From: Alphaproteobacteria bacterium
GTDB taxonomy: Bacteria; Pseudomonadota; Alphaproteobacteria; JAAXGF01
DNA length: 64,000 nt
NCBI GenBank assembly: GCA_963555825.3
Contig: CAUVXB020000002.1
Span: forward strand, 1,344,001-1,408,000
Direction: 5' to 3'
Shown in pieces: positions 28,476-61,319 of this stretch. The translations under genes were made by a program, and so were the position numbers. Within the stretch, counting starts at the first letter, position 1. Each line of letters opens with the position of its first letter. The notes below the pieces were generated by a model. That model was given only the letters and a program-made list of their open reading frames with translations, was not told the origin of the DNA and did no database searches.

Positions 28476-29088
28476 GTTCTCTAACTCGGGGGTTGGTTGT
28501 CAAGCTCTCCGTGACGTACCTGCCGGGTTCACTGTTCTCTCCGCGGTAGGGGCTCGGCCCTCCGCATGATGGCGTTGGAGGACGTTGGCGGATCAATGTG
28601 TGAAGCGCGCTTGCCTCGGTGAGGCATCGCAAAGCCTGGATCGATCTCGCCGACGCCGCCGTCCCGACAGGGACATCGGTTCTCTAACTCGGGGGTTGGT
28701 TGTCAAGCTCTCCGTGACGTACCTGCCGGGTTCACTGTTCTCTCCGCGGTAGGGGCTCGGCCCTCCGCATGATGGCGTTGGAGGACGTTGGCGGATCAAT
28801 GTGTGAAGCGCGCTTGCCTCGGTGAGGCATCGCAAAGCCTGGATCGATCTCGCCGACGCCGCCGTCCCGACAGGGACATCGGTTCTCTAACTCGGGGGTT
28901 GGTTGTCAAGCTCTCCGTGACGTACCTGCCGGGTTCACTGTTCTCTCCGCGGTAGGGGCTCGGCCCTCCGCATGATGGCGTTGGAGGACGTTGGCGGATC
29001 AATGTGTGAAGCGCGCTTGCCTCGGTGAGGCATCGCAAAGCCTGGATCGATCTCGCCGACGCCGCCGTCCCGACAGGGACATCGGTTC
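28476..29088. repeat. Three tandem 203-bp direct repeats
   Basis: Units start at 28476, 28679, 28882; GTTC microhomology at 29085. Confidence 0.97.
28905..29085 (-). ncRNA. Putative bridge/seekRNA (also in the other two repeat units); boundaries approximate
   Basis: Two hairpin-split loops whose flanks match target (TGTGTGAA, AGCCTGG) and donor (TGTTCTCT, ATGGCG). Confidence 0.7.
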
Positions 29089-29119
29089 CGCTCTCGCGGA
29101 ATGCTTGGACGTTGTTTCC

Positions 29120-30151
29120 CTATGCGGCCGCCTCCTTGGTTGACCAGATGAAGTCCGTTCCATCACGCCACATGCGATGGAGGATGACCGCCAGCTTCCG
29201 TGCCACGGCGATCTTGGCCTTCTTGAAGCCGATGCGTTTCCACAACCTGTGACCCCAGGCCTTGAGCGCGCACCATCGCGGCACCCGGGTGAGCAGCACG
29301 CCGGCCGCCTCGAAGAGGTAGGTCCTGAGCATTCGATCGCCGCATTTGGAGATCCGCCCCGTCCAATCGACCTCGCCGGAAGCATGGCGGCGCGGCGTCA
29401 GCCCGATGTACGCGCCGACACTCCGGGAACGTCGGAAGCGGCTCGGCTCGTCGATCGCCGAGTGGAAGGCCAAGGCGGTGATCGGCCCGATGCCTGGAAC
29501 CGTCATGGAACGTCTGCTGTCCTCGTCGTTCCGCGCCAGGCCCAGCAGCTTGCGATAGAGCGCGGCGATCTCTCGGCCGACCTTCTCGCGGACTTCCAGA
29601 AGGGGCCGAACGGCCTCCGACAAAAGACCCTGCCCGCCAAGCAGCTCTTCGACCCGGCGACGGAAGACATTGCCGCCCGCCTTGCCGATGACGAGGCCGA
29701 GGTTCTTGAGCAAGCCACGGATCTGGTTCTCGAGATCACGCTTGATCTTGACCAACTGGGCCCGGCTGTTCAGGACGGCCCGTATCTCGTGGCACGCCAC
29801 GCTCTTGACTTGGACCTCCTTGTACCAACCGCACTGCATGATCCGCGCGATCCCGGCGGCATCGTTCCGGTCGCTCTTGTTGATCTGCATCGACAGCGCC
29901 GCCTTGGCATGACGCGCATCGATGCAGATCACCGGCAAGCCGAGCGCCCTGAGCTCATGCCACAGCCAGGTCGTCGTCGGACCGGTCTCCAGACCGATGC
30001 GCTTTGCGTGCGGCGCCGTTGTCCTGATATACGCCGCGATTGCCGCCGGCTCCGAGATCACCACGCCCTCGGACACGATCTCGCCGTTGTCATCGACCAC
30101 GCAGATCGAGGTCTCCTTGAGCGATACATCCATTCCAACATACAGTTCCAT
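29120..30151 (-). CDS. IS110-family DEDD recombinase/transposase
   Basis: VGMDVS, GLE, KSDRNDA, PGIG, GLTP...ASG, ISKCGD, VARKL. Confidence 0.95.
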   Translation of the reverse strand: MELYVGMDVSLKETSICVVDDNGEIVSEGVVISEPAAIAAYIRTTAPHAKRIGLETGPTTTWLWHELRALGLPVICIDARHAKAALSMQINKSDRNDAAGIARIMQCGWYKEVQVKSVACHEIRAVLNSRAQLVKIKRDLENQIRGLLKNLGLVIGKAGGNVFRRRVEELLGGQGLLSEAVRPLLEVREKVGREIAALYRKLLGLARNDEDSRRSMTVPGIGPITALAFHSAIDEPSRFRRSRSVGAYIGLTPRRHASGEVDWTGRISKCGDRMLRTYLFEAAGVLLTRVPRWCALKAWGHRLWKRIGFKKAKIAVARKLAVILHRMWRDGTDFIWSTKEAAA

Positions 30152-30652
30152 AGCTGCTCTCCTGCTCTTTCAGTGTGCTCGCCCGGCCCATGCCGGTCGT
30201 TGCTACATTAAGGAGAGCAGTGCCCGATCCCCGAGTTACGCCATGTGTGAAAACGCCGGCGAATGCTACTAGCGAGGGAGTGTTCAGCATAATGTTCTAA
30301 ATCACCCTATTATAAGATGTTGATTTTGTTGAACTTGAAAATTCGAGAATCCAGAGAAAATCACGCCAAGAGCGCTCGGGAGCAGTTTTCACACAGCCTG
30401 GGTCAACAGCAGACCTCGGCGGCGTCATCACGCGGTGTCCGCTTTCGAGCGGTAAGCCGACGTCGAACGCCTTGTCCCGCGATCCAGCGTCTTTAAGGTC
30501 TGCTAACGAGCGGGAAGCGGACGCCGACGATCAGCCTCTCGTATGTCTGCTCATAGCCATCACCAGACATGCGGCATGCAGAGCGAGTTTGATTCGCGGG
30601 CCGGAACGGATATTCTGAGGCGCGGAACCAGTGGTCTTGCGGGGAACGTCCG

Positions 30653-31810
30653 ATGAAGACGTTCGTGCTTCCCGATCTCGGTGAGGGTCTGCACGAGGCG
30701 GAGATCGTCGCGTGGCACGTCAGCGCGGGCGACAGCGTCGTCGAGGACGACGTGATCGTCTCCGTCGAGACGGACAAGGCCGTGACCGAGGTGCCCGCCC
30801 CGTGGTCGGGGACGATCGCGCGGCTGTGCGCGGAGGTGGGCGACGTCATCAAGGTGGGCGACGCGATCGTCGCATACGCCGGCGACGACGACGACGATGG
30901 GGCCGTGCCGGAAGCGCGCCCGTCCGATGCGCGCTGGACGGTCGCCGGCGCCGGGACGCGCGTCGCCGCGCCGCAGCCGGGCGCGGGCGTCGCTGTCATG
31001 CCCGCCGTGCGGCTTCTTGCGGCAGAGTTCGACGTCGCGCTTGACGGTGTGACCGGCACCGGGCCCGACGGCGCGATCCTGGCGCGCGACGTCGCGCAAG
31101 CGGCCAAGACGCGCGCGACCCACGACACCGTTGCCGCCGGCGCCGAGCCGGGTGCCCCCGAGACGGTCGAGGAAGCGGCCGACTGGGAGCCACTGAGCGG
31201 GCCGCGCCGGACGATGGCGCGCAACATGGCGCGGGCGCATGCCGAGGTGGTTCCCGCCACGGTCCACGAGGAGGCGGACATCGGCGCGTGGGCTTCGGAC
31301 GAGGACGTGACGGTGAGGTTGGTCCGCGCGCTGTTGGCCGGCGTCGCCGCGGAACCGGCGCTCAATTGCTGGTTCGACGCGCAAAGAGGCCGCCTGGTGC
31401 ACGAGACGGTGGACGTCGGCATCGCGGTTGACACGCCGGCCGGCCTTTTTGTGCCGCCGCTTCGGGGCACCCAGGGCCTTGCCCCGAGCGCGCTGCGCGG
31501 CGAGCTGGACCGCCTCGTGTCGGGTGCGCGGAACCGTTCGCTTTCGGCGGGCGAGCTCAAGGGTGCGACGATCACGCTCAGCAACTATGGCGCCATTGCC
31601 GGGCTTCACGCGACGCCGGTCGTGATGCCGCCCCAGGTCGCGATCCTCGGCGCCGGCCGATCGCGCGCGCAGGTGATTGCCGGCGACGACGGGCCCGTCG
31701 TCGGCCGCGTGCTGCCACTATCGCTCAGCTACGACCATCGTGCCGTGACGGGCGGCGAGGCGGCCCGGTTCATCCGCGCCGTCGTCGCGGATCTGACAAT
31801 GGCGGACTAG
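30653..31810 (+). CDS. 2-oxoacid dehydrogenase E2 (dihydrolipoamide acyltransferase)
   Basis: Lipoyl ETDKA; GTGPDG; TLSNYG; YDHR. Confidence 0.9.
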   Translation: MKTFVLPDLGEGLHEAEIVAWHVSAGDSVVEDDVIVSVETDKAVTEVPAPWSGTIARLCAEVGDVIKVGDAIVAYAGDDDDDGAVPEARPSDARWTVAGAGTRVAAPQPGAGVAVMPAVRLLAAEFDVALDGVTGTGPDGAILARDVAQAAKTRATHDTVAAGAEPGAPETVEEAADWEPLSGPRRTMARNMARAHAEVVPATVHEEADIGAWASDEDVTVRLVRALLAGVAAEPALNCWFDAQRGRLVHETVDVGIAVDTPAGLFVPPLRGTQGLAPSALRGELDRLVSGARNRSLSAGELKGATITLSNYGAIAGLHATPVVMPPQVAILGAGRSRAQVIAGDDGPVVGRVLPLSLSYDHRAVTGGEAARFIRAVVADLTMAD

Positions 31811-31863
31811 GCCCGGCGACGCGGCCGTGTCGCGTTGAAACTGAAACGTTGGAGGAAGATGCC

Positions 31864-32595
31864 ATGGCCAAATATCACGTACGCAACGCCGATACCTACG
31901 GCCACGCCATAGGGATTCTGCTGCTCGACTACCGCGGACCGTTCATCCCCGGCGACGTCGGCAACGCGACGACCTACGACTACCCCGTGCTGTACAAGCT
32001 GGTTAAGGGGTTGACGCTCGACCGCGTCCTGGCGGGCGACCCGGAATGCGGCGCCGATATCGTCGAGGCGGCCAAGGAACTGGAGGAATTCGGCGTCCGG
32101 GGCATCTCGAGCGATTGCGGCTTCCTGGTGCAGTACCAGGCGTTGGTCACGCGGGCGGTCAAGGTGCCGGTCTTCATGTCGAGCCTGCTTCAGATCCCGT
32201 TCCTTTCCAAGATGTTCGATGCGTCGCGACCAGTCGGCTGCATCACGGCGACGCGCAAGAAGCTCGGCAACCGCGTCCTCGAACTGGCCGGCATAACCAG
32301 CGACATCAACGTCGTCGTCAAAGGCATGGAGGATTATCCCCATTTCAAGGAATCGATCCTCGAAGAGTGCGGCGATCTCGACTCGGAGGTGATCGAGCAG
32401 GAAACCGTCGAGGCCGCTCGCGAGCTCCAGTCGCGGCATCCGGACCTGGGCGCCATCGTGCTGGAATGCTCGCTCCTGCCGCCCTACGCCAACGCGGTGC
32501 AGGACGCGACCGGGCTGCCGGTCTTCGACTTCGTCACCATGATCAACTACTTCTACGAGGGCACGCACCGGCGGGCCTATCAGGGCTATTACTGA
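31864..32595 (+). CDS. Aspartate/glutamate racemase family protein
   Basis: PGDVGNATTY, SSDCGF, VLECSLLPPY. Confidence 0.85.
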   Translation: MAKYHVRNADTYGHAIGILLLDYRGPFIPGDVGNATTYDYPVLYKLVKGLTLDRVLAGDPECGADIVEAAKELEEFGVRGISSDCGFLVQYQALVTRAVKVPVFMSSLLQIPFLSKMFDASRPVGCITATRKKLGNRVLELAGITSDINVVVKGMEDYPHFKESILEECGDLDSEVIEQETVEAARELQSRHPDLGAIVLECSLLPPYANAVQDATGLPVFDFVTMINYFYEGTHRRAYQGYY

Positions 32596-32625
32596 GCGCT
32601 GGCAAACGCGGAAGGCAACCGACCG

Positions 32626-33717
32626 ATGATTGACGGTTCCGACAAGGTCGTCGCCGCCTTCGAAATCCGGCGGCGGCAATTCCTCGACATCGACGGCTCA
32701 CCGGTCGCGGCGCTCCCGCCCTGCGCCGAGGATGCGGAATTCGCGCGCAAGCTCTATCGCGGCATGCTGTTCGCGCGCGCCTTCGACGCCAAATGCGTCA
32801 ACCTGCAACGCACCGGCCGTCTCGGCACCTTTTCGACGGCGGCCGGCCAGGAGGCGGTGCCGATCGGGATCGCGTCCGCCATGCGCCGCGACGACGTGTT
32901 CGTCCCCGCCTATCGGGAGGGCTCGGCCCAGATCGCGCGCGGCGTCCGCATCGACGAACTGCTCACCTTTTGGGGCGGCGACGAGCGGGGCAACCGTTAC
33001 GCCGATCCCGCGGTGGCGGACGACCTGCCGGTATGCATCACGGTCGGCAATCACGCGCTCCATGCCGCGGGCGTCGCGACGGCGCTGCAGATCAAGGGTG
33101 AAGACCGCGCCGCGCTTTGCGTCTTCGGCGACGGCGCGACGTCGAAAGGCGACGTCTACGAAGCGCTCAACGTCGCCGGCGTCTGGTCCCTTCCGGTGGT
33201 CTTCGTGATCGCCAATAACCAATGGGCAATCTCCACGCCGCTGAAACACCAGACCGCCGCCCAAACGCTGGCGCAGAAGGGGCTCGCGGGCGGCATCGAG
33301 GTGCTGCAGGTCGACGGCAGCGACGTCATCGCCGTCTATGACGCCGTGTCGCAAGCGCTCGAACGGGCGCGGGGCGGCGGCGGCGCCACGCTCGTCGAAT
33401 GCTTGGCATACCGTCTCCACGATCACAATACCGCCGACGACTCGACGCGATACCGTGATCCGGAAGAGGTCGAACGACAGTGGGCGCATTGCCCGCTGAA
33501 ACGCATGAGAGGATTTCTCGAAAGCAGGGGGTGGTGGGGCGACGAGCGCGAGGCGGCCGCGAAGGCGGCGATCGACGCCGAACTCGAGGCGGCCGTGGCT
33601 TCCTATCTCGCCAGGGAGCCGGACGGCGCCGCCGCCATGTTCGACCACCTGTTCGCGACGCTGCCCGCCGCCTACGCCGATCAGCGCGACGAGGCGATAA
33701 GGTATGAGGATGCCTGA
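32626..33717 (+). CDS. pdhA: 2-oxoacid (pyruvate) dehydrogenase E1 alpha
   Basis: GQEA, GDGATS...NN TPP motif, YRLHDH. Confidence 0.88.
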   Translation: MIDGSDKVVAAFEIRRRQFLDIDGSPVAALPPCAEDAEFARKLYRGMLFARAFDAKCVNLQRTGRLGTFSTAAGQEAVPIGIASAMRRDDVFVPAYREGSAQIARGVRIDELLTFWGGDERGNRYADPAVADDLPVCITVGNHALHAAGVATALQIKGEDRAALCVFGDGATSKGDVYEALNVAGVWSLPVVFVIANNQWAISTPLKHQTAAQTLAQKGLAGGIEVLQVDGSDVIAVYDAVSQALERARGGGGATLVECLAYRLHDHNTADDSTRYRDPEEVERQWAHCPLKRMRGFLESRGWWGDEREAAAKAAIDAELEAAVASYLAREPDGAAAMFDHLFATLPAAYADQRDEAIRYEDA

Positions 33718-34690
33718 ACTGAATCTGGTTCAGGCCGTCAACCAAGCCCTGGCCCGAGCCCTCGAGGATGACCCGGCGGTCGTCGTGCTGGGGCAGGACA
33801 TCGGCATTCACGGCGGCGTGTTTCGGGCGACCGACGGGCTCTATCAGCGATTCGGCGGCACGCGCGTGCGCGACACGCCGCTCGCCGAAACGGCGCTGGG
33901 CGGCCTGACGCTCGGCATGGCGACGCAGGGACTCAAGCCGGTCTGCGAGATTCAGTTCCTCGGCTTCATCTATCCGGTGCTCGACAACCTCGCCAATCAC
34001 GCCTCGCGCATGCGCAACCGCACGCGCGGCCGGCTGACCTGCCCGATGGTCGTTCGCGTGACGCATGGCGGTGGCGTGCGCGCGCCCGAACATCATTCCG
34101 AGGCGCTCGAGTCGATGCTCGCGCATATTCCCGGGCTCAGGGTGGTCATCCCGTCTTCGCCCACGAAAGCCTATGGCCTGCTGCTGAGCGCGATCCGCGA
34201 CCCCGACCCGGTGGTCTTCCTGGAGCCGACCCGGCTTTACCGCGCGTTCAAGGAGCCGGTCGAGGACGACGGCGCGGGGGCCCCGCTCGATCGCTGCTTC
34301 GTCGTCCGCGAGGGAACGGATATCACGCTGGTCGCCTGGGGCGCGATGATGAAGGAGACGTTGGAGGCGGCCGCGCTCCTCGAGGAGCGCGGCGTGTCGG
34401 CCGAGGTGATCGACATCGCGACGATCACGCCGTTCGACGCGGAAACCGTCATCGCATCGGTCGGCAGGACCGGCCGGTGCGTCATCGTGCACGAGGCCGC
34501 GCGGACTGCCGGCTTCGGGGCGGAGATCGCCGCAACGCTCGCCGAACGGGCGATACTGGCCCTCCTCGCGCCGATCGAACGGGTAACCGGCTACGACGTG
34601 GTCATGCCGTTGCCGCGGCTCGAGAAGCATAACATTCCCTCGCCGCAGCGAATATTGGCGGCATGCGAGCGCAGCCTGAGGTTCGGTTGA
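33710..34690 (+). CDS. pdhB: 2-oxoacid (pyruvate) dehydrogenase E1 beta
   Basis: GGVFRATDGL, DTPLAE, EHHSE, VHEA. Confidence 0.88.
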   Translation: MPELNLVQAVNQALARALEDDPAVVVLGQDIGIHGGVFRATDGLYQRFGGTRVRDTPLAETALGGLTLGMATQGLKPVCEIQFLGFIYPVLDNLANHASRMRNRTRGRLTCPMVVRVTHGGGVRAPEHHSEALESMLAHIPGLRVVIPSSPTKAYGLLLSAIRDPDPVVFLEPTRLYRAFKEPVEDDGAGAPLDRCFVVREGTDITLVAWGAMMKETLEAAALLEERGVSAEVIDIATITPFDAETVIASVGRTGRCVIVHEAARTAGFGAEIAATLAERAILALLAPIERVTGYDVVMPLPRLEKHNIPSPQRILAACERSLRFG

Positions 34691-34825
34691 AGGCCCGGCC
34701 GATCGCCGTCACAGGCCGTCACATCACGCCGAAATCTCGAGTCATTCAAATTCCAACCCCGGTCGGGCAGGCAAGACTAACTCGCAATCGTCCAATGCAG
34801 CCCGCCGCGACTTCGGCTCGGGGTC

Positions 34826-36337
34826 CAGACTGTGTAAGAACGTTTGCTGCGTGATCTGTACGGCGCGTCTTTGGCTTCGATGATCCGTCGCGGCGGGTAT
34901 TCCGGGATTAAGGATTTTCGCCACTCGTGCGGACCTGTCGGCCGGCTGGCGCCGGTGTGAGCTGCGATTTGGCCGGATATGGGCGCAATTTGCGGCGCAG
35001 AGAGGCCTATGCGGTCCTCATCGCCGCGATCAGCGGGTCGATGCCCGTGATGTTCATGACGCGCTTGAGATTGTAGGCCAGCACGTGCAGGGCCATCTCG
35101 GTCCTCACCCGTTTCAGCGTCTTCGTCTGGAAATGCGTCGCGCCCATCCAGGACTTGATGGTGCCGAAGGGATGCTCGGCCGTCTCGCGCCGCCGACGCA
35201 TCGCCTCCGGGTGCTCGTCGAGCCGCCTCTCGACGGCCTCGAGAACATGCTCGTGCTGCCAGCGGGTGATGCGGCGCTGCTTGGCCGTGGTGCAGCGATG
35301 CTTGATGGCGCATCCCTGACAGGCGTTGGTCCAGTAGCGCCGCATGCTCAGCCCCCTCTCCTGGCTGGTGAAGCGGTAGACCAAACGCTCGCCGGCCGGG
35401 CAGCGATAGACATCGTCGGCGGCCAGATAGACGAAGTCCTGTTTGCCGAAGCGGCCCTTGGCCTTGGCTCCAGAGGTCAGCGGCTTAGGCAATGTGACGG
35501 TGATGCCGGCCTCATCGCAGGCCAGAATCTCCTTGCCGTTGTAGTAGCCGCGATCGGCAACGACATCCAACTCGTCGGTCTCCAGAGCCGCCTTGGTCCG
35601 CTTCGCCATGGCTGAGAGCTGGGCGCGGTCGGTGCCCTGATTGGTCACCTCGTGGGCGACGATCAGGTGGTGCTTGGTGTCGACGGCGGCCTGAACGTTG
35701 TAGCCGACCACGCCGGAACCCCGGCCGCTCGTCGCCATCGAGCGGGCATCGGGATCGCTCAGAGAGATCTGCTGGTCCGGGCTCGCACGCCGCTCGACTT
35801 CAAGCGCCTTCAGGCGCCGCATCTCCTCCTTGAGGATCGCGATCTTGTCGGCCAGACGAGTCGTCTTGGTCGTGCGCGCCAGCGACGGCTCTTGCCGGTC
35901 GGCGCTGTCCAACTGGTCCAGATAGCGCGCAACGCTCTCCTCGATCTGCGCCACCCGCCGCGCCATCTTGGCCCGCGTGAAGTTCCTGTCCCGGCTGTTG
36001 ACCGCCTTGAACTTCGAGCCATCGATCGCCACGCTCGCCTCGGCGAACAGCCCGAGTTGCCGGCACAGCGCGACGAACCGGGCGCAGACCTTGCGGATCG
36101 CACGGCCGTTGTCCTTGCGGAAGTCGGCGATCGTCTTGTGATCCGGCGCCAGCCGGCCGACCAGCCACATCACTTCCACATTGCGCCCGGCCTCCCTCTC
36201 GAGCCGACGGCTCGACTGAACCCGGTTGAGATAGCCGTAGATGTAGAGCTTCAACAAATCGCAAGGATGATAGGCCGGCCTGCCGGTCGCCAGCGGCTCG
36301 ACCCGGTCGAACCCGAGGCCGCCAAGATCGAGCTCAT
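34826..36337 (-). mobile_element. IS1182-family element; 5' end removed by IS21 (transposase 35007-36337)
   Basis: IDGSK, DPDAR, GYNVQ, ADRGYY, EHPFGTIK; end CAGACTGTGTAAGAAC. Confidence 0.9.
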
Positions 36338-39955: not shown

Positions 39956-40322
39956 TGCGAGGCGGCTCTCGCACGACCGTCGCCCGGATCAGCATGATCG
40001 CCATCGCCTGATGAGAGTTCCGATATGGGACCCATATCCACCTCCTCGGATGGGACCCGCTGGCTACCAGAAAAACCGACCTTGGAACGAGAGATCGCCG
40101 ACATACAGCATGAACCTGATGGGACCCACCGCCGTCGCGATGTACCCCTCCCCCCGGGGTCCGAACATGTGCGGCCGATCTTGGTCCGATTGCCTGGCCT
40201 CCAACTTGACGCCCAGATCACCAGTCGAGCGGTGGCATCATGGGAAACCAGAGAGGATTGCAGCCACCGAGGGCCGCGAGGGCGACGATGACCCGGTGAC
40301 CAGCAACGCGATGATGATCCAA

Positions 40323-41387: not shown

Positions 41388-41463
<76 letters not shown>

Positions 41464-41674
41464 ACCGAGGCCCGGCGATATATCAGAGCCTTTGTGCTTT
41501 GTCGATAGCCGCCCACGCGTCGCTGGTTCGTGTCAGTCGCGCGTGCCGTTGCAAGGCTCGGTGATCCTGATCGGCGAGACGCGAACTTCAATGTCAACGG
41601 CCTCGACTCGGGCCTGCACCGGTTCAACATCAGCGTCAGCCTCGACCGGGTCCCCCGGCGGCGTGGGCGGCGGC

Positions 41675-48820: not shown

Positions 48821-48954
48821 CGGGTTCGGAACAAAGTGTGAATATTCTTGATTTTTCGCGCCCGATGCTTATATATACCCACAAGATTGGAGCAATACCA
48901 ATGAGGCCGAGCGCGTGGGCGCCCGGCCGTGTCGTCTTAAGGGTGTCGGTATTC

Positions 48955-49848: not shown

Positions 49849-49851
49849 CGT

Positions 49852-50584: not shown

Positions 50585-50607
50585 TATAATAGTCGGCTTA
50601 CGTTTAA

Positions 50608-51900
<1,293 letters not shown>

Positions 51901-51914
51901 CTATCCGTGCCCCA

Positions 51915-53069: not shown

Positions 53070-53088
53070 GACGGGTCCGCTTGATCCT

Positions 53089-54666
53089 TTAGAAGTTCAG
53101 CGCCGCGGCCTGGTGGACGCCGTCGATGGCGCGCACCTTGGCGAGCACGTCTTCGGGCAGCGCGCCGTCGACTTCGATCAGCGCGATGGCGTCGCCGCCG
53201 GCTTCGGCGCGGCCCAAGTGGAAAGTCGCGATGTTGACGCCGCCGTCGGCCAGCGCCATGCCGAGATGGCCGATGATGCCCGGCTTGTCCTCGTTGGTGA
53301 TGTAGAGCATGTGATGGCCCAGCTCGGCCTCGATGTTGATGCCCTTGATCTCGACGACGCGCGGCTTGTTGTCGCCAAACAGCGTGCCGGCGATCGACCG
53401 CGAGCGCCGTTCGGTGGTCACCGTGATGCGGATCAGCGATTGATAGTCGCCCCGGCGCGCGTGGCTGGTCTCGCTGACCGCGATGTTGCGCTCCCTGGCG
53501 ACCAGCGGCGCGTTGACCATGTTGACCGAATCCATCAACGGCGCGAGTAGGCCGGCGAGCGCGGTGGCGGTCAGCGCGCGGGTGTTGAGCTCGGCCGCGT
53601 GACCCTCGTACTCGACCGTCACCGCCACCAGCCCGGTCGCCGTGAGCTGACCGGCGAAACCACCGAGCTGCTCGGCGAGCCGCATGTAGGGCCTGAGCTT
53701 GGGCGCCTCCTCGGCGGTGACCGACGGCATGTTGAGCGCGTTGGTCACGGCGCCGGTCAACAGGAAATCCGACATCTGTTCGGCGATCTGGCGCGCCACG
53801 TTCTCTTGCGCCTCAGTCGTCGAGGCGCCGAGATGTGGCGTCACGATGACTTGGTCGAACGCGAACAGCGGGTTGTCGGTCGCCGGTTCCTCGGTGAAGA
53901 CGTCGAACGCGGCGCCCGCGACATGGCCGCTCTCGAGCGCCGCCACGAGGTCCGCCTCGACCACCAGGCCGCCGCGCGCGCAGTTGATGACGCGCACCCC
54001 CGGCTTGGTCTTGGCGAGTGCCGCGGCATCGATCATGCCGCGCGTCGCGTCGGTCAGCGGGACGTGGAGCGAGATGAAGTCAGCGCGCGCCAAAAGCTCG
54101 TCCAGCTCGACCTTCTCGACACCGAGCTCCTCGGCGCGTTGGGTCGAAACGAAGGGGTCGTAGGCCAGCACGCGCATCTTGAGACCCTGGGCGCGATTGG
54201 CGACGATCGCGCCGATATTGCCGCAGCCGACCAGGCCCAAGAGCTTGCCGGCGACCTCGGTGCCCATGAAGCGCGCCTTTTCCCACTTGCCGGCGCGCGT
54301 CGAGGCGTCGGCCGCCGGGATGCGTCGGGTGAGCGCCATGATCATGGCGATGGCGTGCTCGGCGGTGGTGATCGCGTTGCCGAACGGCGCATTCATGACG
54401 ACCACGCCGCGCGCCGTCGCGGCGGCGACGTCGACGTTGTCGACGCCCGAGCCGGCGCGGCCGACCACCTTGAGCGCATCGGCGGCGGCCAGCAGCTCGG
54501 CACTCACTTGGGTCGACGAGCGCACGACGAGGCCGTCGATGTCGGTCAGTTCGGCAGCCAGATCGTCCGCCGCCAGCCCGGTCGCCACCACGGCGTCGAT
54601 GCCGTTGGCGGTGAACACTTGCGCCGCGATGTCGCTCATCTCATCGGCGATCAATACCTTCGGCAT
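53089..54666 (-). CDS. serA: D-3-phosphoglycerate dehydrogenase
   Basis: GRAGSGVDNVD, GCGNIG, NCARGG, PHLGAST, ACT domain. Confidence 0.96.
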   Translation of the reverse strand: MPKVLIADEMSDIAAQVFTANGIDAVVATGLAADDLAAELTDIDGLVVRSSTQVSAELLAAADALKVVGRAGSGVDNVDVAAATARGVVVMNAPFGNAITTAEHAIAMIMALTRRIPAADASTRAGKWEKARFMGTEVAGKLLGLVGCGNIGAIVANRAQGLKMRVLAYDPFVSTQRAEELGVEKVELDELLARADFISLHVPLTDATRGMIDAAALAKTKPGVRVINCARGGLVVEADLVAALESGHVAGAAFDVFTEEPATDNPLFAFDQVIVTPHLGASTTEAQENVARQIAEQMSDFLLTGAVTNALNMPSVTAEEAPKLRPYMRLAEQLGGFAGQLTATGLVAVTVEYEGHAAELNTRALTATALAGLLAPLMDSVNMVNAPLVARERNIAVSETSHARRGDYQSLIRITVTTERRSRSIAGTLFGDNKPRVVEIKGINIEAELGHHMLYITNEDKPGIIGHLGMALADGGVNIATFHLGRAEAGGDAIALIEVDGALPEDVLAKVRAIDGVHQAAALNF

Positions 54667-54671
54667 GTCCC

Positions 54672-55832
54672 CTACTCCGCCGCCGCGCGTTGCCTGATCT
54701 CGCGGTAGGCCCAATCGAGCCACGGCAGGAGCGCTTCGATGTCGGCCGTCTCGACCGTCGCGCCGCCCCAGATGCGCAGCCCCGGCGGCGCCGCGCGGTA
54801 GGCGCCGATGTCGTGCGCCACGCCCTCGGCGTCGAGCAGTACGGCGACCCGCTTGGCGGCGGCCGCCCGTTCGGCGTCGTCCAGCGTGGCGAACCAGGCG
54901 TCGGCGAAACGCAGGCAGATCGAGGTGCAGGAGCGTGTTTCGGGCGTCTGGGCCAGGAAGTCGGCCCAGTCGCTCGCCGCGACCCAGCGCGCGACGGCCG
55001 CGAGGTTGGCTTCGGCGCGGGCGATCAGCGCATCGAGCCCGCCGATCGCCTCGGCCCAGCGCAGCGCGTCGAGCACGTCCTCGACGCAGAGCATCGACGG
55101 CGTGTTGATCGTCGCGCCCTCGAACAGCGCCGCGTCGAGCTTGCCGCCCGACGTCATGCGGAAGAGCTTGGGCAGCGGCCAGGGCGGCGCGTAGCTTTCC
55201 AGGCGGGCGACCGCGCGGGGCGACAGGACGATCATGCCGTGCGCCGCCTCGCCGCCGAGCACCTTCTGCCAGGAGAAGGTGGCGACGTCGAGCTTGTCCC
55301 ACGGCAGGGCCATGGCGAAGGCCGCCGAGGTCGCGTCGCAGATCGTCAGGCCGGCGCGGTCGGCGGCGATCCAGTCGCCGTTCGGCACGCGCACGCCCGA
55401 GGTCGTGCCGTTCCAGACGAAGACGACGTCACGCTCGAAGTCGGCGTCGGCGAGGTCGGGCAGCGCGCCGTAGCCGGCCTTGAGCAGGCGCAGATCCTCG
55501 ATGCCGAGCTGTTCGGTGACATCGGTGATCCAGGTCTGGCCGAAGCTCTCCCAGGCAAGGACGTCGACGCCGCGCGCGCCCAGCAGCGACCACAGCGCCA
55601 TCTCGACGGCGCCGGTGTCCGACGCCGGCACGATGGCGACGCGGTGGTCATCGGGCACGCCGAGCAGCGCGCGCGTCCGGGCGATCACTTCGGCGAGCTT
55701 GGCCTTGCCCGGCGCGGCGCGATGCGAGCGACCGAGCAATGCGCCGTCGAGCACGGCCGGCGTCCAGCCGGGCCGCTTGGCGCAGGGACCGGACGAGAAC
55801 AGCGGGTTTTGCGGGCGGACCGATGGCTTCAC
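54672..55832 (-). CDS. serC: Phosphoserine aminotransferase
   Basis: [28 protein letters not shown]; GTG start inferred. Confidence 0.94.
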
Positions 55833-55969
55833 GGGACGCGGGCCTTGGTTGTTTGTGGGTTCCCCCGCGCCGGCGGGGGCGTGACGGTTGCGCAGTTTAG
55901 GCCCGCAGACGGCCGCGTCAACGTTCGTGTTGCGCTGCAGCACGCGGACGAAGCATCGGGCGAGGCGGC

Positions 55970-56374
55970 CTATTGCTTGTCGAGCTGCCTGACGGCTGCG
56001 AGTTCCATCGCCCAGGGCTGCGCCGAGCGGCACCAGTACTGGAACTTCGGCTGGAGCTGGTCGCGCTGGCGCGCGGTACCGAGGCGGAGGTTGAGGGTTT
56101 TCGGCCCGTCGCCGACCGAGAACGAATAGAGCGGCGAGGCACATTCTGGGCAGAAGACCTGATGGTTCGTCGCGCCGCTCTCGGCCGTCTTGACGTGGGT
56201 CTTGGGCGTGCCCGAGAGCAGCTCGAAGTTCGCTTCGGGCGTATGCACCGCCCAACGAAACGCCGAGCCGGTGATCGACTGGCAGTCGGTACAATGGCAG
56301 ACGTAGACCCTGTCGGGATCAACCTCGGCCCGATACGTGATGTGCCCGCAGTGGCACGACCCGTCGATTTTCAT
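55970..56374 (-). CDS. GFA (CENP-V) family protein
   Basis: GSCHCG, CHCTDC, FCPEC. Confidence 0.88.
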
Positions 56375-56510
56375 GTTCCCACTCCTTGCTGATGCCCACC
56401 GACGATCCAATCGGCAGGCCCAGATTATCAAACGTCGACCGGTGTTGCCTCGGTTAAGATGCGACAGGGGACCCGGCCCGGAGTTCCCACCGATTGCCCG
56501 AGGAAAACCA

Positions 56511-57281
56511 ATGTTGGGCGCCATTGCCGGCGACATCGTCGGCTCGATCTACGAGCACCGCAACATCAAGACCAAGGACTTTGCGCTGTTCGGCGCGCGC
56601 TGCGATTTCACCGACGACACCGTCTGCACGGTCGCCGTCGCCGACTGCCTGATCGCCGGTGGTGATTTCGCCGACTACCTGCGCCGCTATGCCCTGGCGT
56701 ATCCCAACCGGGGCTACGGCGGCATGTTCCAACAATGGGCGATGACCGGCGGCGGGCCCTACAACAGCTGGGGCAACGGCTCGGCCATGCGGGTCAGCCC
56801 GGTCGCCCACGCCGCGCGCGACGAGCACGACGCCCTCGAGCTCGCCCGGCGATCATCGGCGGTGACCCACGACCACCCGGACGCGGTCGCCGGCGCCCAG
56901 GCGGTCGCGCTCGCCATGTGGCTGGCGCGCGCGGGCGCCGACGCGCTGGCGATTCGCCGCGAGATCGCCGCCCGCTTCGGTTACGATCTCGCGCCGAGCG
57001 TCGACGACATCCGGCCGCATTACCGCTTCGACGTGTCGGCCGCCGGCACGGTGCCCCAGGCGATCACCTGCGCGCTCGAGGCGACCGGTTACGAGGACGC
57101 GCTGCGCAACGCGATCTCGATCGGCGGCGATTCCGACACGCTCGCCTGCATCACCGGCGGCATCGCCGAGCTCCTGTTCGGCCTGCCCGACGACATCGCC
57201 GAAACCGCGCGGCGCCACCTCACCGACGATCTGCGCGCCGTGGTCGACCGGTTTACCGACGCCGTCCAGACCGCCGAGTAG
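56511..57281 (+). CDS. ADP-ribosylglycohydrolase family protein
   Basis: GAIAGD, TDDT, GNGSAMR, GGDSDT. Confidence 0.92.
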   Translation: MLGAIAGDIVGSIYEHRNIKTKDFALFGARCDFTDDTVCTVAVADCLIAGGDFADYLRRYALAYPNRGYGGMFQQWAMTGGGPYNSWGNGSAMRVSPVAHAARDEHDALELARRSSAVTHDHPDAVAGAQAVALAMWLARAGADALAIRREIAARFGYDLAPSVDDIRPHYRFDVSAAGTVPQAITCALEATGYEDALRNAISIGGDSDTLACITGGIAELLFGLPDDIAETARRHLTDDLRAVVDRFTDAVQTAE

Positions 57282-57291
57282 CGCGCGTGGC

Positions 57292-58741
57292 GGCGATGTC
57301 CCTATCTCTGTTGAAATTCGTGGGGCAGGCGTCGCTGGTTGATGATGCTATGCTGCCTTCATGATGGTTTCAATGGCACTGTCGGCCTGAGCCTTTCTCA
57401 AGTGTTCCTGGAGAGCATTTCGGAGGATGGGCAGCTGACGATAGGCCTTGAGGCGACGGAAGGTTTTCTGGGCCTCCAGCAGGCCGGCGGCGGTCCATCT
57501 GAGCGCCATCTCGGCGTGTCTCCAGCGTTTGACGTTGCGGGTGACCTGGCGCACCGTGCCGAGCGCGTTCTCGACGATGTTGGTGCAGGCGAGCGAGCGC
57601 CGGAGTTCGTGCGGCAGGCCGAGGCGGATGACGGTGAGGATCTCGTCCAGCCCCTCCAGGATGCTGCCCGAGACGCCCGGTTCCTCATGCTCCAGACGCC
57701 GGGCCAGGTTGCGCAGCAGCCGTTCGGCCTTGTCTGCGTCGTCCTGGTCCCAGGCCTGACGGAGCGCCTTCTTGACGCTCGCATGCAAATGCAGGGGCAG
57801 GCGCTCGATGATGTTACGGCCCTTGTGGACCTGGCAGCGCTGGATGGCGGCGGCCACACCGAAGGTGTTGCGGATCGCTTTGCTGAGCGCCTTCGCGCCA
57901 TCGACGATGAACAGCCGGGGCAGCGTCGGATCGAGCCCCCTGGCGAGGAGATTGTCGAGCAAGGCCTGGACGACGACAGTGTTCTCCGTCGCCCCCTCGA
58001 CCACGGCCAGGACATGCTTGTCGCCGTTGCCATCGACGCCGATCGCCGCCACCAAGACATGGTCGCCGACATGCAGACCGTCGATCTGGATGACCAGCAG
58101 GTCGAGCTCCGAGAGGTCCGAGGCGAGCCAGGCCTTCATCTTCTTGCGCGACAGCGCCACAAAGCGCCGGGAAACGGCCGACTTCGAGGTGCCGTCGCCA
58201 CGCGCTTTCGCCAGGTCGCCCTCGGGCAGACGGACCGCGCGGTGGTACTTGCGGGTCGACACGTTCAGGACCATCAGGTTGAGCGCCCACTCGAGCAACA
58301 GGTTGCCGTCGCGCAGCACCTGCCAGCTCTCCAAACCCACCTCCTTGCCAGCATGGTCGCGAACCCGTGGCCGCTGCACTTTCACGCGGCCGCCGTGGTA
58401 GCCGATCTCGCTCTGCGTATGGCCCCAGCGATAACCCCGACGGTTCCCATGGCGACGATGTCGGGCCCCGCACACGGTCGTGGCGTCCTCCTCCATCATC
58501 TCGGCCAAGGCCTCGACCCCGGCCAGGAGACAGAACCGATCCACGCTGAGACGGACTGCGTCCATCGCGTCTGCCAGCGGCGGCATAGGAAACGAGGTGG
58601 CAAGGGCTTTCGGGCTACTGGAACTACGGATATTCTTTCCCATGGTGTCGTTCTCCCTCTTGGGTTTGCAGCACCCGGAGCCTAACGGCTCCAGGAGAGC
58701 GACACCTACCTCAACTTTTCAACATCGACCGGGACATCTCC
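57292..58741 (-). mobile_element. IS256-family element (transposase 57348-58643), 8-bp TSD
   Basis: TIR GGCGATGTCCC/GGGACATCTCC; CGCGTGGC duplicated; IDG, VDG, CQVH, TNIVE. Confidence 0.92.
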
Positions 58742-58802
58742 CGCGTGGCGCGCTGACAGCGGCCACGCATCCGCCAGGCCCCGACAAAGGGCCGGGAGCC
58801 AA

Positions 58803-59073
58803 CATGTGTGGACGGCTCCCTGTTGGCAAGAGATTTTGTGACGTTGATGCAAGCTGGTCGGGTGCTGCCATGTGTGGACGGCTCCCTGTTGGCAAGAGAT
58901 TTTGTGACGTTGATGCAAGCTGGTCGGGTGCTGCCATGTGTGGACGGCTCCCTGTTGGCAAGAGATTTTGTGACGTTGATGCAAGCTGGTCGGGTGCTGC
59001 CATGTGTGGACGGCTCCCTGTTGGCAAGAGATTTTGTGACGTTGATGCAAGCTGGTCGGGTGCTGCCATGTGT
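58803..59073. repeat. Four tandem 66-bp repeats of the IS110 end
   Basis: Units start at 58803, 58869, 58935, 59001; CATGTGT microhomology at 59067. Confidence 0.97.
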
Positions 59074-60744
59074 CCGGCCTTTTGGTGCGGCGTACATGGC
59101 CGCTGGCCCTAATGCGATCCGCGGGGTCGGGTCCCAGTCATAAGCACGCGCTCGAGGCGCCGTGGCTATAGCGGGTTTTCCCGATCCTCGGTTCGACCGA
59201 TTTTGCATTACGTCACTTACACTCCGCCAAACTCGTGAACGCCTTGTTTTCGTCGGCCTAGGCCGTCGCGGGCCTGCGATAGGTTCCGCCATGTCTCAGA
59301 AGCGCCCAGGCAATGCGGGCGTTCTTGTTGGCCAGCGCCACGGCCGCGACCTTGGTCGGCTTGTCGGCGATGATGTTGGCAAGCCATGGATCGGTCGTGC
59401 CGCGTCGCTTGGCGTGGCGGATGACCGTCATGGCGCCGGCGACCAGCAGCCAGCGCAGGTATTGATCGCCCTGCTTGGAGATCCGCCCCATGCGCTCCTT
59501 GCCACCGGTCGAGTTCTGTCTTGGCACCAGCCCGATCCAAGCGGCCATTGAGCGGCCCGATTTGAAGATCGACGGATTGGCAATCGAAGATGCCAGCGCG
59601 CTCGCCGTGATCGGTCCGATGCCGGGTGTGGTTTCGAGACGCAGGCTCTCTTCGTTCGTCCGGTGCCAGGCGTGGATACGCCTCTCAGCGCCGACGATCT
59701 CCCGCTCCAGCGACAGCAACTGCCGCGCCAGCCCTTCCAGGCAAGTCCGCGCCAGGGGCGGAATGCGCTCATCCGCCTCATCGCTGATCACCGCGAGCAG
59801 CTCCTTGACCTGCGGCAACCCGGTTCGCGCCACCACCCCGAACTCCGCCATGTGCGCCCGCGTAGCGTTGACCATGTGTGGACGGCTCCCTGTTGGCAAG
59901 AGATTTTGTGACGTTGATGCAAGCTGGTCGGGTGCTGCCATGTGTCCGGCCTTTTGGTGCGGCGTACATGGCCGCTGGCCCTAATGCGATCCGCGGGGTC
60001 GGGTCCCAGTCATAAGCACGCGCTCGAGGCGCCGTGGCTATAGCGGGTTTTCCCGATCCTCGGTTCGACCGATTTTGCATTACGTCACTTACACTCCGCC
60101 AAACTCGTGAACGCCTTGTTTTCGTCGGCCTAGGCCGTCGCGGGCCTGCGATAGGTTCCGCCATGTCTCAGAAGCGCCCAGGCAATGCGGGCGTTCTTGT
60201 TGGCCAGCGCCACGGCCGCGACCTTGGTCGGCTTGTCGGCGATGATGTTGGCAAGCCATGGATCGGTCGTGCCGCGTCGCTTGGCGTGGCGGATGACCGT
60301 CATGGCGCCGGCGACCAGCAGCCAGCGCAGGTATTGATCGCCCTGCTTGGAGATCCGCCCCATGCGCTCCTTGCCACCGGTCGAGTTCTGTCTTGGCACC
60401 AGCCCGATCCAAGCGGCCATTGAGCGGCCCGATTTGAAGATCGACGGATTGGCAATCGAAGATGCCAGCGCGCTCGCCGTGATCGGTCCGATGCCGGGTG
60501 TGGTTTCGAGACGCAGGCTCTCTTCGTTCGTCCGGTGCCAGGCGTGGATACGCCTCTCAGCGCCGACGATCTCCCGCTCCAGCGACAGCAACTGCCGCGC
60601 CAGCCCTTCCAGGCAAGTCCGCGCCAGGGGCGGAATGCGCTCATCCGCCTCATCGCTGATCACCGCGAGCAGCTCCTTGACCTGCGGCAACCCGGTTCGC
60701 GCCACCACCCCGAACTCCGCCATGTGCGCCCGCGTAGCGTTGAC
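59001..60744. repeat. 872-bp tandem duplication (IS110 non-coding end plus 3' part of the transposase)
   Basis: 59001-59872 equals 59873-60744; duplicated ORF translations. Confidence 0.95.
59900..60070 (-). ncRNA. Putative bridge/seekRNA (second copy near 59030-59200); boundaries approximate
   Basis: Loops carrying CATGTGT/ATGCG (donor-like) and CATAAGCA/TGGCT (target-like). Confidence 0.55.
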
Positions 60745-61152
60745 CAGCATGGTTCTCTGGCGGACCAGAAGCTCGCGCGTTCGGTGCAGCATCAGAACGC
60801 TCTGCTGCTCGACGCTCTTCACCGCGACAAAGCGCATCGTCGGGCGCGTGACGGCCTCGCAAATAGCCTCCGCATCGGCAGCGTCATTCTTGTTCCGCTT
60901 CACGTAGGGCTTCACATAGCGCGGCGGCATCAGCTTGACCTCATGCCCAAGCGCCGCGATCTCCCGCGCCCAGTAATGCGCGGTCGCACATGCCTCCATA
61001 CCAACCAGGCAGGGCGGCTGTTTCTCGAAGAAGGCCAGCACCTGACGCCGCCTCAACTGACGGCGGACGACCACGGTTCCCTCGGCGTCAACGCCATGCA
61101 CCTGAAATACGTTCTTCGCAAGATCAACACCGATCGTGATAACTTCGTTCAT
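60130..61152 (-). CDS. IS110-family DEDD recombinase/transposase
   Basis: GVDLAK, MEAC, KNDAADA, GLVPRQNSTGG, ANKNAR. Confidence 0.95.
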   Translation of the reverse strand: MNEVITIGVDLAKNVFQVHGVDAEGTVVVRRQLRRRQVLAFFEKQPPCLVGMEACATAHYWAREIAALGHEVKLMPPRYVKPYVKRNKNDAADAEAICEAVTRPTMRFVAVKSVEQQSVLMLHRTRELLVRQRTMLVNATRAHMAEFGVVARTGLPQVKELLAVISDEADERIPPLARTCLEGLARQLLSLEREIVGAERRIHAWHRTNEESLRLETTPGIGPITASALASSIANPSIFKSGRSMAAWIGLVPRQNSTGGKERMGRISKQGDQYLRWLLVAGAMTVIRHAKRRGTTDPWLANIIADKPTKVAAVALANKNARIAWALLRHGGTYRRPATA

Positions 61153-61319
61153 GGACGGCTCCTATTTCCCTGTGGTTCATCGAAACCACCATTTTGGCAC
61201 CTAGATGCCTGCGGGTGGGAGCCGTCCACCGCATCATGAGCAGACATTCCGAGGATTCCCTCCGCGCATAGATTCTTCCACTGCGACTCGCTAATCTCGC
61301 TGGCAAGGGAGGACGTCAC

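Follow-up and report, generated by a model that had tools for sequence, protein, structure and literature searches.

Two composite insertion sequences of the IS110 family

The window, that is, the whole 64,000-nt stretch analysed here from contig C2 of the studied genome (G000), contains two composite insertion sequences, IS-A and IS-B, whose features are collected in Table 1. The PF01548 and PF02371 domains of their transposases score above the curated cut-offs (60.9 and 80 bits, respectively, in IS-A; 60.8 and 90.7 bits in IS-B), and the two proteins share 32% identity over 292 aligned residues; thus, the original prediction correctly described them as two divergent IS110 elements. The features of the IS1111 group are present in both: (i) subterminal inverted repeats of 10 bp in IS-A and 13 bp in IS-B; (ii) a long non-coding region (NCR) downstream of the transposase gene and a short one upstream (238 vs. 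~92 nt in IS-A, 257 vs. ~85 nt in IS-B), as given for this group in the available text of PMC11187229; and (iii) a transposase of 330-350 aa with the motif GL-P----S(t)G, which reads IGLTPRRHASG in IS-A (343 aa) and IGLVPRQNSTG in IS-B (340 aa). The flanks of IS-A match 25 uninterrupted copies of one motif, as in site-specific insertion at a core, and the empty site of IS-B is provided by a contig of run X5 that joins 58805 to 61238, which fixes the outer boundaries and indicates scarless insertion. A search of both NCRs against Rfam gave no match, and their predicted folds have z-scores of -2.8 and -2.5. IS-A and IS-B are evidently active IS1111-type members of the IS110 family.

Table 1. Features of IS-A and IS-B (positions in the window).
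Element	Feature	Position	Strand	Remarks
IS-A	Composite: canonical IS1111-type element plus two extra 203-bp right-end (RE) units	28476..30246	-	
IS-A	Canonical element	28882-30246	-	Includes left copy of core AC at 30245-30246; left boundary set by comparison with uninterrupted target copies
IS-A	Extra 203-bp unit	28476-28678	-	Ends at RE terminus
IS-A	Extra 203-bp unit	28679-28881	-	Ends at RE terminus
IS-A	Transposase	29120..30151	-	343 aa, DEDD/IS110 family, PF01548 + PF02371
IS-A	Subterminal inverted repeat, right arm TAACTCGGGG	28482..28491		Partner 30229-30238; read from sequence
IS-A	Internal motif TTCACACA	29003..29010	-	Equals left target flank plus core
IS-A	Internal motif AGAGAAC	28940..28946	-	Equals RE end plus core; then AG(T) as in right flank
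IS-A	Uninterrupted target motif copy, TTTCACAC followed by AGCCTGG	30387..30401	+	G000:C2:1374387
IS-B	Composite: canonical element plus one 872-bp unit and three 66-bp units	58803..61237	-	
IS-B	Canonical element	59873-61237	-	
IS-B	Three extra 66-bp units (58803, 58869, 58935)	58803..59000	-	Each ends at RE terminus
IS-B	872-bp unit, final 872 nt of IS-B	59001..59872	-	Junction at internal TG
IS-B	Transposase	60130..61152	-	340 aa, DEDD/IS110 family, PF01548 + PF02371
IS-B	Subterminal inverted repeat, right arm GTGGACGGCTCCC	58808..58820		Partner 61217-61229; 13-nt complementary match
IS-B	Internal motif ACACATG (transposase strand)	59939..59945	-	Equals last 7 nt of element

Repeat search, TRF, and direct reading agree on the tandem units that extend both elements at the right end. 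In IS-A, a 203-bp unit is present in 3.0 copies at 28476-29088 with 100% identity; each extra unit equals the final 203 nt of the element (reference positions 1188-1390, twice), which make up most of the 238-nt NCR, and the right arm of the subterminal inverted repeat is present again in every unit. In IS-B, a 66-bp unit is present in 4.1 copies at 58803-59073 with 100% identity, and a direct duplication, also at 100% identity, relates 59001-59872 to 59873-60744. The latter 872-bp unit holds a truncated transposase copy (ORF 59258-59941, PF02371 only), and the whole composite amounts to 2432 bp relative to the empty site. Since both transposase genes lie on the minus strand, the units start, on the plus strand, at the terminus downstream of the transposase; this holds for every extra unit, as originally predicted, with three such ends in IS-A (28476, 28679, and 28882) and five in IS-B (58803, 58869, 58935, 59001, and 59873). 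The predicted unit sizes of 203, 66, and 872 bp were likewise recovered, at 100% identity.

Recurrence of the arrays within the genome and in relatives

Extra units are present in 8 of the 12 copies of IS-A and IS-B in the genome (4/6 for either element): besides the pair in the window, six further loci have the same RE-array anatomy, and the longest array contains 15 termini. The last base of the element is the end of every extra unit of both IS-A and IS-B in this genome. Counts of 25-nt probes from the middle, the left end (LE), and the RE are 6/7/12 for IS-A and 6/5-7/29-31 for IS-B, and comparison of the LE and RE counts reveals no left-end-anchored arrays of either element in the genome. 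In other assemblies, three loci of relatives (L093, L126, and L129) display the same anatomy, with units of 98 nt in L093 and 192 nt in L126/L129; these begin behind an internal TG and extend to the conserved terminus. The start site in L093 is homologous to that of a 94-bp unit of IS-B, and L068, a sister copy of L093, is canonical. L126 and L129 have one common unit at two insertion sites; therefore, the composite was transposed intact. Across the survey of relatives, tandem repeats were found downstream of the transposase at 5/65 loci and upstream of it at 0/63 loci.

Long-read mis-assembly can inflate the ends of a repeated element, and the 100% identity of the units and the richness of the genome in IS copies (~85 of one 1421-bp IS) are in line with such an artefact; moreover, unit numbers are those of the assembled sequence, in which short-read contigs bridge no internal array junction. 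An artefact is nevertheless extremely improbable, given that eight loci with differing unit sizes all obey the terminus-plus-core rule described below, that the same anatomy occurs in independent assemblies, that the genome is closed to 2 contigs, that the outer boundaries agree with an empty site in another run, and that the same phenomenon is reported in the available text of a published survey (10.64898/2026.08.14.744561).

Junctions and internal sites

In each of the 11 clean junction types, the exact RE terminus is fused to a position inside the element that follows the terminal dinucleotide. Where the junction is preceded by an intact terminus, the dinucleotide before the internal site is AC in 4/4 cases for IS-A and TG in 7/7 cases for IS-B, the background share of such positions being 4.8% and 7.0%, respectively. 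The shared dinucleotide is as expected of the core where IS110-family recombinases exchange strands. The anticipated enrichment of breakpoints at IS110 termini was also borne out, one side of every junction being the exact RE terminus and not a generic position. Replication slippage or microhomology-mediated duplication at short direct repeats, neither of which needs the recombinase, would fit the 66-, 94-, and 203-bp units, whose junctions have overlaps of 7 nt (ACACATG), 4 nt, and 4 nt (GAAC, core AC included), the 66-bp unit being flanked by 7-nt repeats; in addition, from two copies on, the number of units can vary by slippage or unequal crossing-over without the transposase. As the origin of the arrays, however, slippage is very unlikely. 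The overlap beyond the core is merely 0-5 nt and totals 2 nt in 6/11 junction types, and is therefore too short for homology-driven slippage to hit the exact terminus each time; this terminus is common to all junctions of both elements, whose sequences are unrelated, and to those found in other assemblies, and arrays unlinked to IS in the whole-genome TRF list (83 rows, period of at least 20, at least 90% matches) are without such anchoring.

The internal sites are concentrated near the right end, as 8/11 used sites lie in the last 260 nt compared with 29/156 core-bearing positions (P = 6.5e-5). For the arms we adopted the strand convention of IS621 (LT-RD and LD-RT), under which the RE corresponds to LD, as is assumed here for IS1111-type elements. 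Used core-bearing sites are not enriched in LD similarity (P = 0.32 for IS-B, 0.97 for IS-A), and clear junction mimics account for only 2/11 internal sites; both results count against an origin by the recombinase, as does the right-junction mimic AGAGAAC of IS-A, which is the start of no unit in the genome. In their right halves, the internal sites do not resemble RD (P = 0.998 for IS-B, 0.78 for IS-A). In this convention, the junction copies would comprise an LD-core-RT copy located 66 nt inside the terminus of IS-B, and an LT-core-RD and an LD-core-RT copy that both lie in the NCR of IS-A. The 66-bp unit of IS-B starts at the ACACATG motif, and a 122-bp unit of IS-A at G000:C1:936380 starts at TTCACACA. 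In 22/25 relatives, including 11/14 with a different terminus, the internal motif corresponding to ACACATG is identical to the final 7 nt of the element itself, and in 22/25 relatives the 2 nt after it match the 2 nt that open the right flank; for both measures, 0/10,000 shuffles reached the observed value. Because the motif co-varies with the terminus, it is likely guide-coding, and ACACATG of IS-B is thus probably part of the DNA encoding a seekRNA/bridge RNA.

Other IS families and other IS110 loci

The window also carries an IS630, two IS21, an rve-type IS, an IS1595, an IS1380-like fragment, an IS1182/IS5-like element, and an IS256. TRF analysis of the whole window gave 7 rows, five of which lie outside IS-A and IS-B with periods of 9-26 bp, and none of these five is located within another IS. 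The claim that no other IS family shows the pattern thus holds in the window; genome-wide, it holds apart from single cases in two DDE families, namely left-end-anchored partial copies of an rve-type IS at G000:C2:40127-43372 and one 64-bp end-anchored duplication of the 1421-bp IS at C2:3458458. These end-anchored partial copies arise without a bridge recombinase and, as isolated cases, count against a role of the recombinase in the arrays. IS630 in this genome forms whole-element tandems. Arrays were found in 0/27 other IS110-family transposase loci in the genome, close relatives of IS-B included; therefore, the chemistry alone does not make the reaction inevitable, and even in this genome arrays are not shared by IS110 elements in general.

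Proposed mechanism and significance

The arrays are best read as the result of RE-anchored recombination driven by the recombinase, and we consider this probable. The sequences directly show the anatomy of the arrays, their recurrence, the core rule, the asymmetry of the ends, and the co-variation of the internal motif; the recombinase dependence, the nature of the partner molecule, and the succession of steps, as we infer them, would be the following. A DEDD recombinase guided by an RNA from the long NCR downstream of the transposase would normally exchange strands at the two-base core (AC in IS-A, TG in IS-B), and the arrays would be its by-products. The right-end junction (LD donor arm plus core) would recombine with an internal site of its own element, mostly in the NCR, for which little would be required beyond a matching core dinucleotide; a sister copy probably supplies the partner, or the route may involve a small excised circle. 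In the product, the element would be trailed by a repeat of the whole stretch between the internal site and the terminus; further rounds, along with unequal homologous exchange, would generate arrays. At least two internal sites copy the element's own junctions because guide-coding DNA would share sequence with the site that the guide recognises, and array-bearing elements remain mobile because the outermost terminus is intact.

The originally proposed re-insertion of one end at core-like sites is favoured by the exact terminus and core in 11/11 junction types, by recurrence at six loci in G000 and three in other assemblies, and by the lack of upstream arrays (0/63); its one-ended character is shared in outcome by another route, in which a full excised circle inserts itself at a weak pseudo-target x in a resident copy to give IS[1..x]-IS[1..L]-IS[x+1..L], and a RecA deletion between the [1..x] repeats leaves IS[1..L]-IS[x+1..L]. 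This route involves no special one-ended reaction and predicts exactly the sequence seen, and its product is the same as that of an in-place half-site exchange. It would explain the persistence of short units near the right end, because the long left repeat collapses fast, and it would equally explain the pattern of the rve-type IS. In addition, used IS-B sites resemble the target a little more than other TG sites do, in both flanks, a weak enrichment (P = 0.044 and 0.029, uncorrected, n = 7), the site of the IS-A 122-bp unit copies the left target flank plus core, and IS110 elements are described as lacking target immunity in the available text of 10.64898/2026.08.14.744561. We nonetheless find self-insertion followed by collapse unlikely: no nested IS[1..x]-IS-IS[x+1..L] arrangement of IS-A or IS-B occurs among the 41 BLAST segments listed (of 73 rows; at least 85% identity), which cover 12 full copies; the 872- and 630-bp units need collapse of the shorter repeat; left-end-anchored products, the alternative outcome of collapse, are absent; and the array at C2:2096597, with its units of 22-26 nt, implies many full insertions, each then collapsed.

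Under a bolder version of RE-anchored recombination, which we put forward tentatively and deem rather unlikely, the recombinase would 'self-target' its own guide gene, as the guide of IS1111-type elements is encoded at the right end by DNA that copies the junctions recognised by the guide; right-end arrays and orphan guide modules, with MITE-like satellites in the long run, would be an intrinsic and predictable by-product of 3'-encoded guides, with internal-site usage set by the guide and not by chance core dinucleotides.

The points left open in the available text of 10.64898/2026.08.14.744561, namely the recognition of the non-donor boundary and the involvement of the LD arm only, are narrowed by these data: one junction partner is always the right terminus, and the other needs just the core dinucleotide, sometimes in a guide-coding mimic. 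Bridge (IS110/IS1111) recombinases are under development as programmable genome editors, for which off-target and side reactions still pose an unresolved problem, and here two unrelated, evidently active elements have a frequent side reaction that is readable at base-pair resolution. IS-A and IS-B thereby offer a simple test system for the core, the internal mimic, and the guide. Arrays are carried along when the element moves and may release orphan right-end modules, from which MITE-like satellites could arise.

Comparison with known systems

IS91 offers a parallel to the RE arrays, in that its ends are functionally asymmetric and its one-sided reactions can duplicate neighbouring DNA or take it up. 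IS91 encodes a rolling-circle HUH transposase, unlike the RNA-guided DEDD recombinase. The closest precedent is a survey (10.64898/2026.08.14.744561; bioRxiv, Aug 2026), the available text of which cites one-ended transposition of IS91 in its discussion and reports tandem non-coding units beside IS110 transposases (n = 468), with boundaries that match almost only LD (right end). The suggestion that the arrays might be an undescribed behaviour of bridge recombinases is thus superseded. The authors speculate on an in-place, one-sided, recombinase-linked duplication, and describe the sequences recognised at the other boundaries as 'yet to be defined'. IS-A and IS-B contain tandem units as defined there (at least 2 adjacent same-strand units of at least 50 bp and at least 95% identity beside the transposase), and, with the RE taken as LD, their unit boundaries match LD and not RD; common to both data sets are near-identical, mostly non-coding tandem units adjoining the transposase with an LD-only boundary. 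In IS-A and IS-B, 11/11 internal breakpoints follow the core dinucleotide and two fall on junction mimics, whereas IS1111-type elements, the core, and guide mimics do not appear in the available text of the survey.

A biochemical basis for a right-end-only reaction and off-target joints is offered by the half-match, donor-arm-only recombination of IS621, which, in the available text of 10.64898/2026.08.31.748434, requires a match to just one half of the bridge RNA sites, down to ~5 bp. This work concerns an IS110-type element with an upstream bridge RNA, and excision and off-target insertion in a cell-free system, not tandem duplication or IS1111-type elements. The IS1111 family described by Siddiquee et al. 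2024 (PMC11187229) shares subterminal inverted repeats, the long downstream NCR, a transposase of 330-350 aa, GL-P----S(t)G, and, putatively, short NCR matches to the target strands; tandem right-end arrays are not described in the available text, where the word 'tandem' occurs 0 times. Finally, in the ISPpu9/MITEPpu9 system, as presented in the available text of PMC12288879, the IS110-family element has an additional module downstream that is flanked by copies of its ends, the transposase forms circles of this module alone, and tandem modules exist in some strains; moreover, ISPpu9 with mutated ends recombines at other suitably placed AG dinucleotides and forms module-only circles. The ssr9 module of ISPpu9 has A' and B' ends and a distinct sRNA gene, whereas the units of IS-A and IS-B are plain copies of the tail with the right end only.

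Features of the Two IS1111-Type Elements

Both IS110-family elements in the window, IS-A and IS-B, lie on the minus strand and encode transposases that share 32% identity over 292 aligned residues. Each element possesses subterminal inverted repeats (IS-A, TAACTCGGGG, 10 bp; IS-B, GTGGACGGCTCCC, 13 bp), short non-coding DNA upstream of the transposase gene (~92 and ~85 nt, respectively), long non-coding DNA downstream of it (238 and 257 nt), and the GL-P----S(t)G motif in the transposase. These traits are shared with the IS1111 group as characterized in passages of Siddiquee et al. (PMC11187229), where the guide (seekRNA) of this group is placed downstream of the transposase. The non-coding regions of IS-A and IS-B fold better than shuffled sequences (z = -2.8 and -2.5), and an Rfam scan of both elements gave no match to a bridge/seekRNA family; the weak matches to a bZIP intron and mir-9318 (E = 0.1-0.3) were dismissed as chance.

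In both elements, the tail downstream of the transposase gene is repeated head to tail, and the plus-strand start of each repeat copy is the element terminus. Direct repeat mapping confirmed to the nucleotide the original prediction of three such termini in IS-A and five in IS-B, with units of 203, 66, and 872 bp.

Coordinates and content of IS elements and repeat arrays (positions without a contig prefix refer to the window; C1 and C2 are the contigs of the source genome)
Feature	Location	Strand	Content
IS-A transposase, 343 aa	29120-30151	-	PF01548 + PF02371
IS-B transposase, 340 aa	60130-61152	-	PF01548 + PF02371
Canonical IS-A	28882-30246	-	From comparison of all genomic copies and flanks
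Canonical IS-B	59873-61237	-	From comparison of all genomic copies and flanks
IS-A array	28476-29088		203-bp unit x3.0, copies 100% identical
IS-B array	58803-59073		66-bp unit x4.1, copies 100% identical
IS-B direct duplication	59001-59872 = 59873-60744		872 bp, 100% identical
IS-B, window copy			Units 872 + 66 x 3
IS-B copy	C1:170052		Units 134 x 2 + 94 x 2
IS-B copy	C1:2234568		Scrambled array, final units ...134, 94
IS-B copy C2:2096597, largest array (L036)	C2:2097962-2099656		15 right termini in ~1.7 kb, units 22-296 nt
IS630 arrays	C1:235249-239976 (L025), C1:1422086, C2:2331984, C1:310753, C1:621700, C2:2031481
IS630 element, single copy	4759-5883

A contig from sequencing run X5 joins window position 58805 to 61238 and represents the empty site of IS-B, thus, compared with a related strain, IS-B and its complete array (2432 bp) have inserted without leaving a scar. 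The read check rested on short-read contigs, and among those listed none crosses the 872-bp junction or gives the number of 66-bp units; two joints, 58805 to 58867 (run X16, side 27) and 58805 to 58999 (run X1, side 21), are too short-sided and ambiguous inside a tandem repeat to be informative. An IS256-family (Mutator) transposase gene (57348-58643) is separated by ~160 bp from the IS-B unit that lies outermost, and beside it lies a 42-bp repeat (58700-58742) that occurs at no fewer than 20 sites of the genome.

The IS-A target motif, ...TTTTTACAC/AG(C/T)CTGG..., is found in 25 uninterrupted copies genome-wide, including one at window positions 30387-30401, and the flank site of IS-A itself is at 28465-28475. 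In its form ...GTTTTTACAC/AGYCTGGGTC, the target is a terminal sequence common to several different repeat/IS families. IS4321 and IS5075 target the inverted repeats of transposons, and the insertion of IS-A into conserved ends of repeat families recalls these elements by analogy.

Recurrence of Right-End Arrays in the Source Genome

The source genome (6.04 Mb, two contigs) contains six full copies of each element. Additional units are present at the right end of four IS-A copies (630 bp; 122 bp; 23 bp; 203 bp twice), and four IS-B copies carry arrays. Counts of 25-nt probes from the middle, left end and right end were 6, 7, and 12 for IS-A and 6, 5-7, and 29-31 for IS-B, so that in both elements the surplus is confined to the right end. 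Successive units of the largest IS-B array measure 296, 296, 209, 138, 138, 26, 165, 24, 138, 40, 24, 22, 106, and 71 nt; units of 100% identity are interspersed with units of 83-94%, and a search elsewhere in the genome found no exact donor for the diverged ones. The genome encodes 39 IS110-family transposase loci, and arrays occur only in IS-A and IS-B; none was present at 27 other loci, including six copies with 76-80% protein identity to IS-B.

Four orphan right-end fragments of IS-A/IS-B (C2:840560-840645, C2:2842355-2842537, C2:2633437-2633510, and C1:1638212-1638261) are 50-183 nt long with 86-91% identity, run up to the terminus and lack a neighboring transposase. Excision of the main element from an inner terminus may have left such units in place. 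At C2:524028-525627, an IS-B copy adjoins, tail to tail, an IS1111-type element that is 80% related to it; the junction is at the right terminus of the latter, which looks as though it had been used as an IS-B target.

Anatomy of the Junctions

We scored 11 junction types that have an intact terminus in front. The internal breakpoint always falls directly after the terminal dinucleotide of the element, namely AC for IS-A (4 of 4 cases) and TG for IS-B (7 of 7); these dinucleotides account for 4.8 and 7.0% of positions, respectively. The overlap at the junction is 2 nt in six types and 3, 4, 4, 4, and 7 nt in the others. The final 260 nt contain eight of the 11 used sites, compared with 29 of the 156 positions that bear the core (P = 6.5e-5). 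Such a pattern, in which one constant terminus is linked to differing partners that all contain the crossover dinucleotide, is characteristic of a site-specific recombinase and would not arise by slippage. Scoring of the internal sites against the left and right donor arms (LD, RD) and target arms (LT, RT) gave weak or absent signals, the LT test for IS-A being approximate owing to a one-base offset in the LT strings of four copies; compared with other core sites, the used sites are no more similar to LD and are weakly target-like.

When the terminal 200 nt of 26 members of the family, 25 of them scorable, were aligned, an internal copy of the junction became apparent. In 22 of 25 members, a motif located ~66 nt inward from the terminus reproduces exactly the final 7 nt of the same element, a match retained in 11 of the 14 members whose terminus differs from ACACATG. 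The 2 nt after the motif are also the same as those that open the right flank in 22 of 25. Neither count was attained in any of 10,000 shuffled pairings. The motif thus probably represents a guide-coding segment. The 66-bp unit of IS-B begins exactly at this motif. In IS-A, the motif TTCACACA(T) is identical to the left junction and marks where the 122-bp unit begins, and the motif AGAGAAC-AG is identical to the right junction; no unit starting at AGAGAAC-AG was found in this genome.

Proposed Mechanism

We consider it likely that the recombinase mediates an exchange of the right junction (LD plus core) with a core-bearing site inside the element, thereby duplicating the segment between them. 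The exchange could proceed by a half-site reaction in place, perhaps between sister copies; by re-integration of small circles comprising positions x+1 to L; or by insertion of a full circle into a resident copy, after which the long left repeat would collapse by homology. All three routes give an identical product. Neither a nested IS-in-IS intermediate (among the matches listed) nor, by probe counts, a left-end-anchored product of IS-A or IS-B was found in this genome, which mildly favors the first two routes over the third. The one-ended recombinase mechanism of the original prediction agrees with current thinking and is partly supported here, but it is not new.

Related Elements in Other Assemblies

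From other assemblies, we collected 80 loci whose genes encode relatives of the IS-B transposase and recorded tandem repeats (period of at least 20, at least 90% matches). Of the eligible loci, 5 of 65 had such repeats within 1.5 kb downstream of the gene, and 0 of 63 had them upstream. Three of the five are terminus-anchored (L093, L126, and L129), L126 and L129 representing one event. In all three, an internal TG precedes the start of the unit, and the unit ends with the conserved terminus ...CCGTCCA(C/T)ACATG. A single additional 98-nt unit distinguishes L093 from its sister copy L068, and the L093 site is homologous to that of the 94-bp unit of IS-B. The same 192-nt unit occurs in L126 and L129 at two different insertion sites, thus a composite can transpose in one piece. 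The other two repeats, 62 bp at the start of the downstream non-coding region (L076) and 21 bp outside the element (L113), are unanchored and were rejected. Relatives were found in 11 of 31 genomes including the source genome, most of these being fragmented MAGs unsuited to array scoring. A gene-less, MITE-like sequence in a relative genome (G001:C97:2324-2634, L050) consists of the first ~222 nt and last ~90 nt of an IS-B-like element.

Arrays in Other IS Families

The original statement that other IS families lack the pattern holds within the window; genome-wide it has exceptions, for an rve-type IS and a 1421-bp IS both have end-anchored copies. The rve-type (DDE) IS at C2:40127-43372 (L031) is arranged as segments 1..1002, 1..900, and the full element, each from the left terminus; end anchoring is thus seen here in a family that has no bridge recombinase. 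The 1421-bp IS has ~85 near-identical copies (e.g., C2:1334883-1337725, L032), a longest ORF of 477 aa with no Pfam match, one 64-bp end-anchored duplication (C2:3458458), and one whole-element tandem pair. An IS630-family element (DDE_3, 1181 bp) forms perfect head-to-tail arrays of 2-4 whole copies. Adjacent copies share the TA of the CTAG target, and CTAG is re-created by the element ends, thus repeated insertion into the element's own end junction would explain these arrays. The source genome is in massive IS expansion, and its DNA is also present in sponge-metagenome runs.

Comparison with Known Systems

The behavior was originally proposed as possibly undescribed for bridge recombinases; however, tandem units of this kind already appear in a 2026 preprint (bioRxiv 10.64898/2026.08.14.744561), parts of which speculate on LD-initiated in-place duplication and term the asymmetry unresolved. 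We found no earlier description in the literature outside subscription journals. The main-text passages of that preprint mention neither IS1111-type elements nor a core dinucleotide at the internal boundary. Donor-arm-only "half-match" recombination is described for IS621 in sections of another preprint (10.64898/2026.08.31.748434), and portions of a study on ISPpu9 (PMC12288879) report the use of other core dinucleotides when the ends are mutated, as well as module-only circles. Tandem cargo repeats were obtained in 3 of 96 excision colonies in a CazIS110 preprint. Against this background, the IS-A and IS-B arrays are a real, well-resolved and unusually rich case of a recently described bridge-recombinase side reaction, to which they may add the finding that each internal breakpoint obeys the core rule, the coincidence of some breakpoints with putative guide-coding copies of the junction, and evidence of arrays carried along on transposition.
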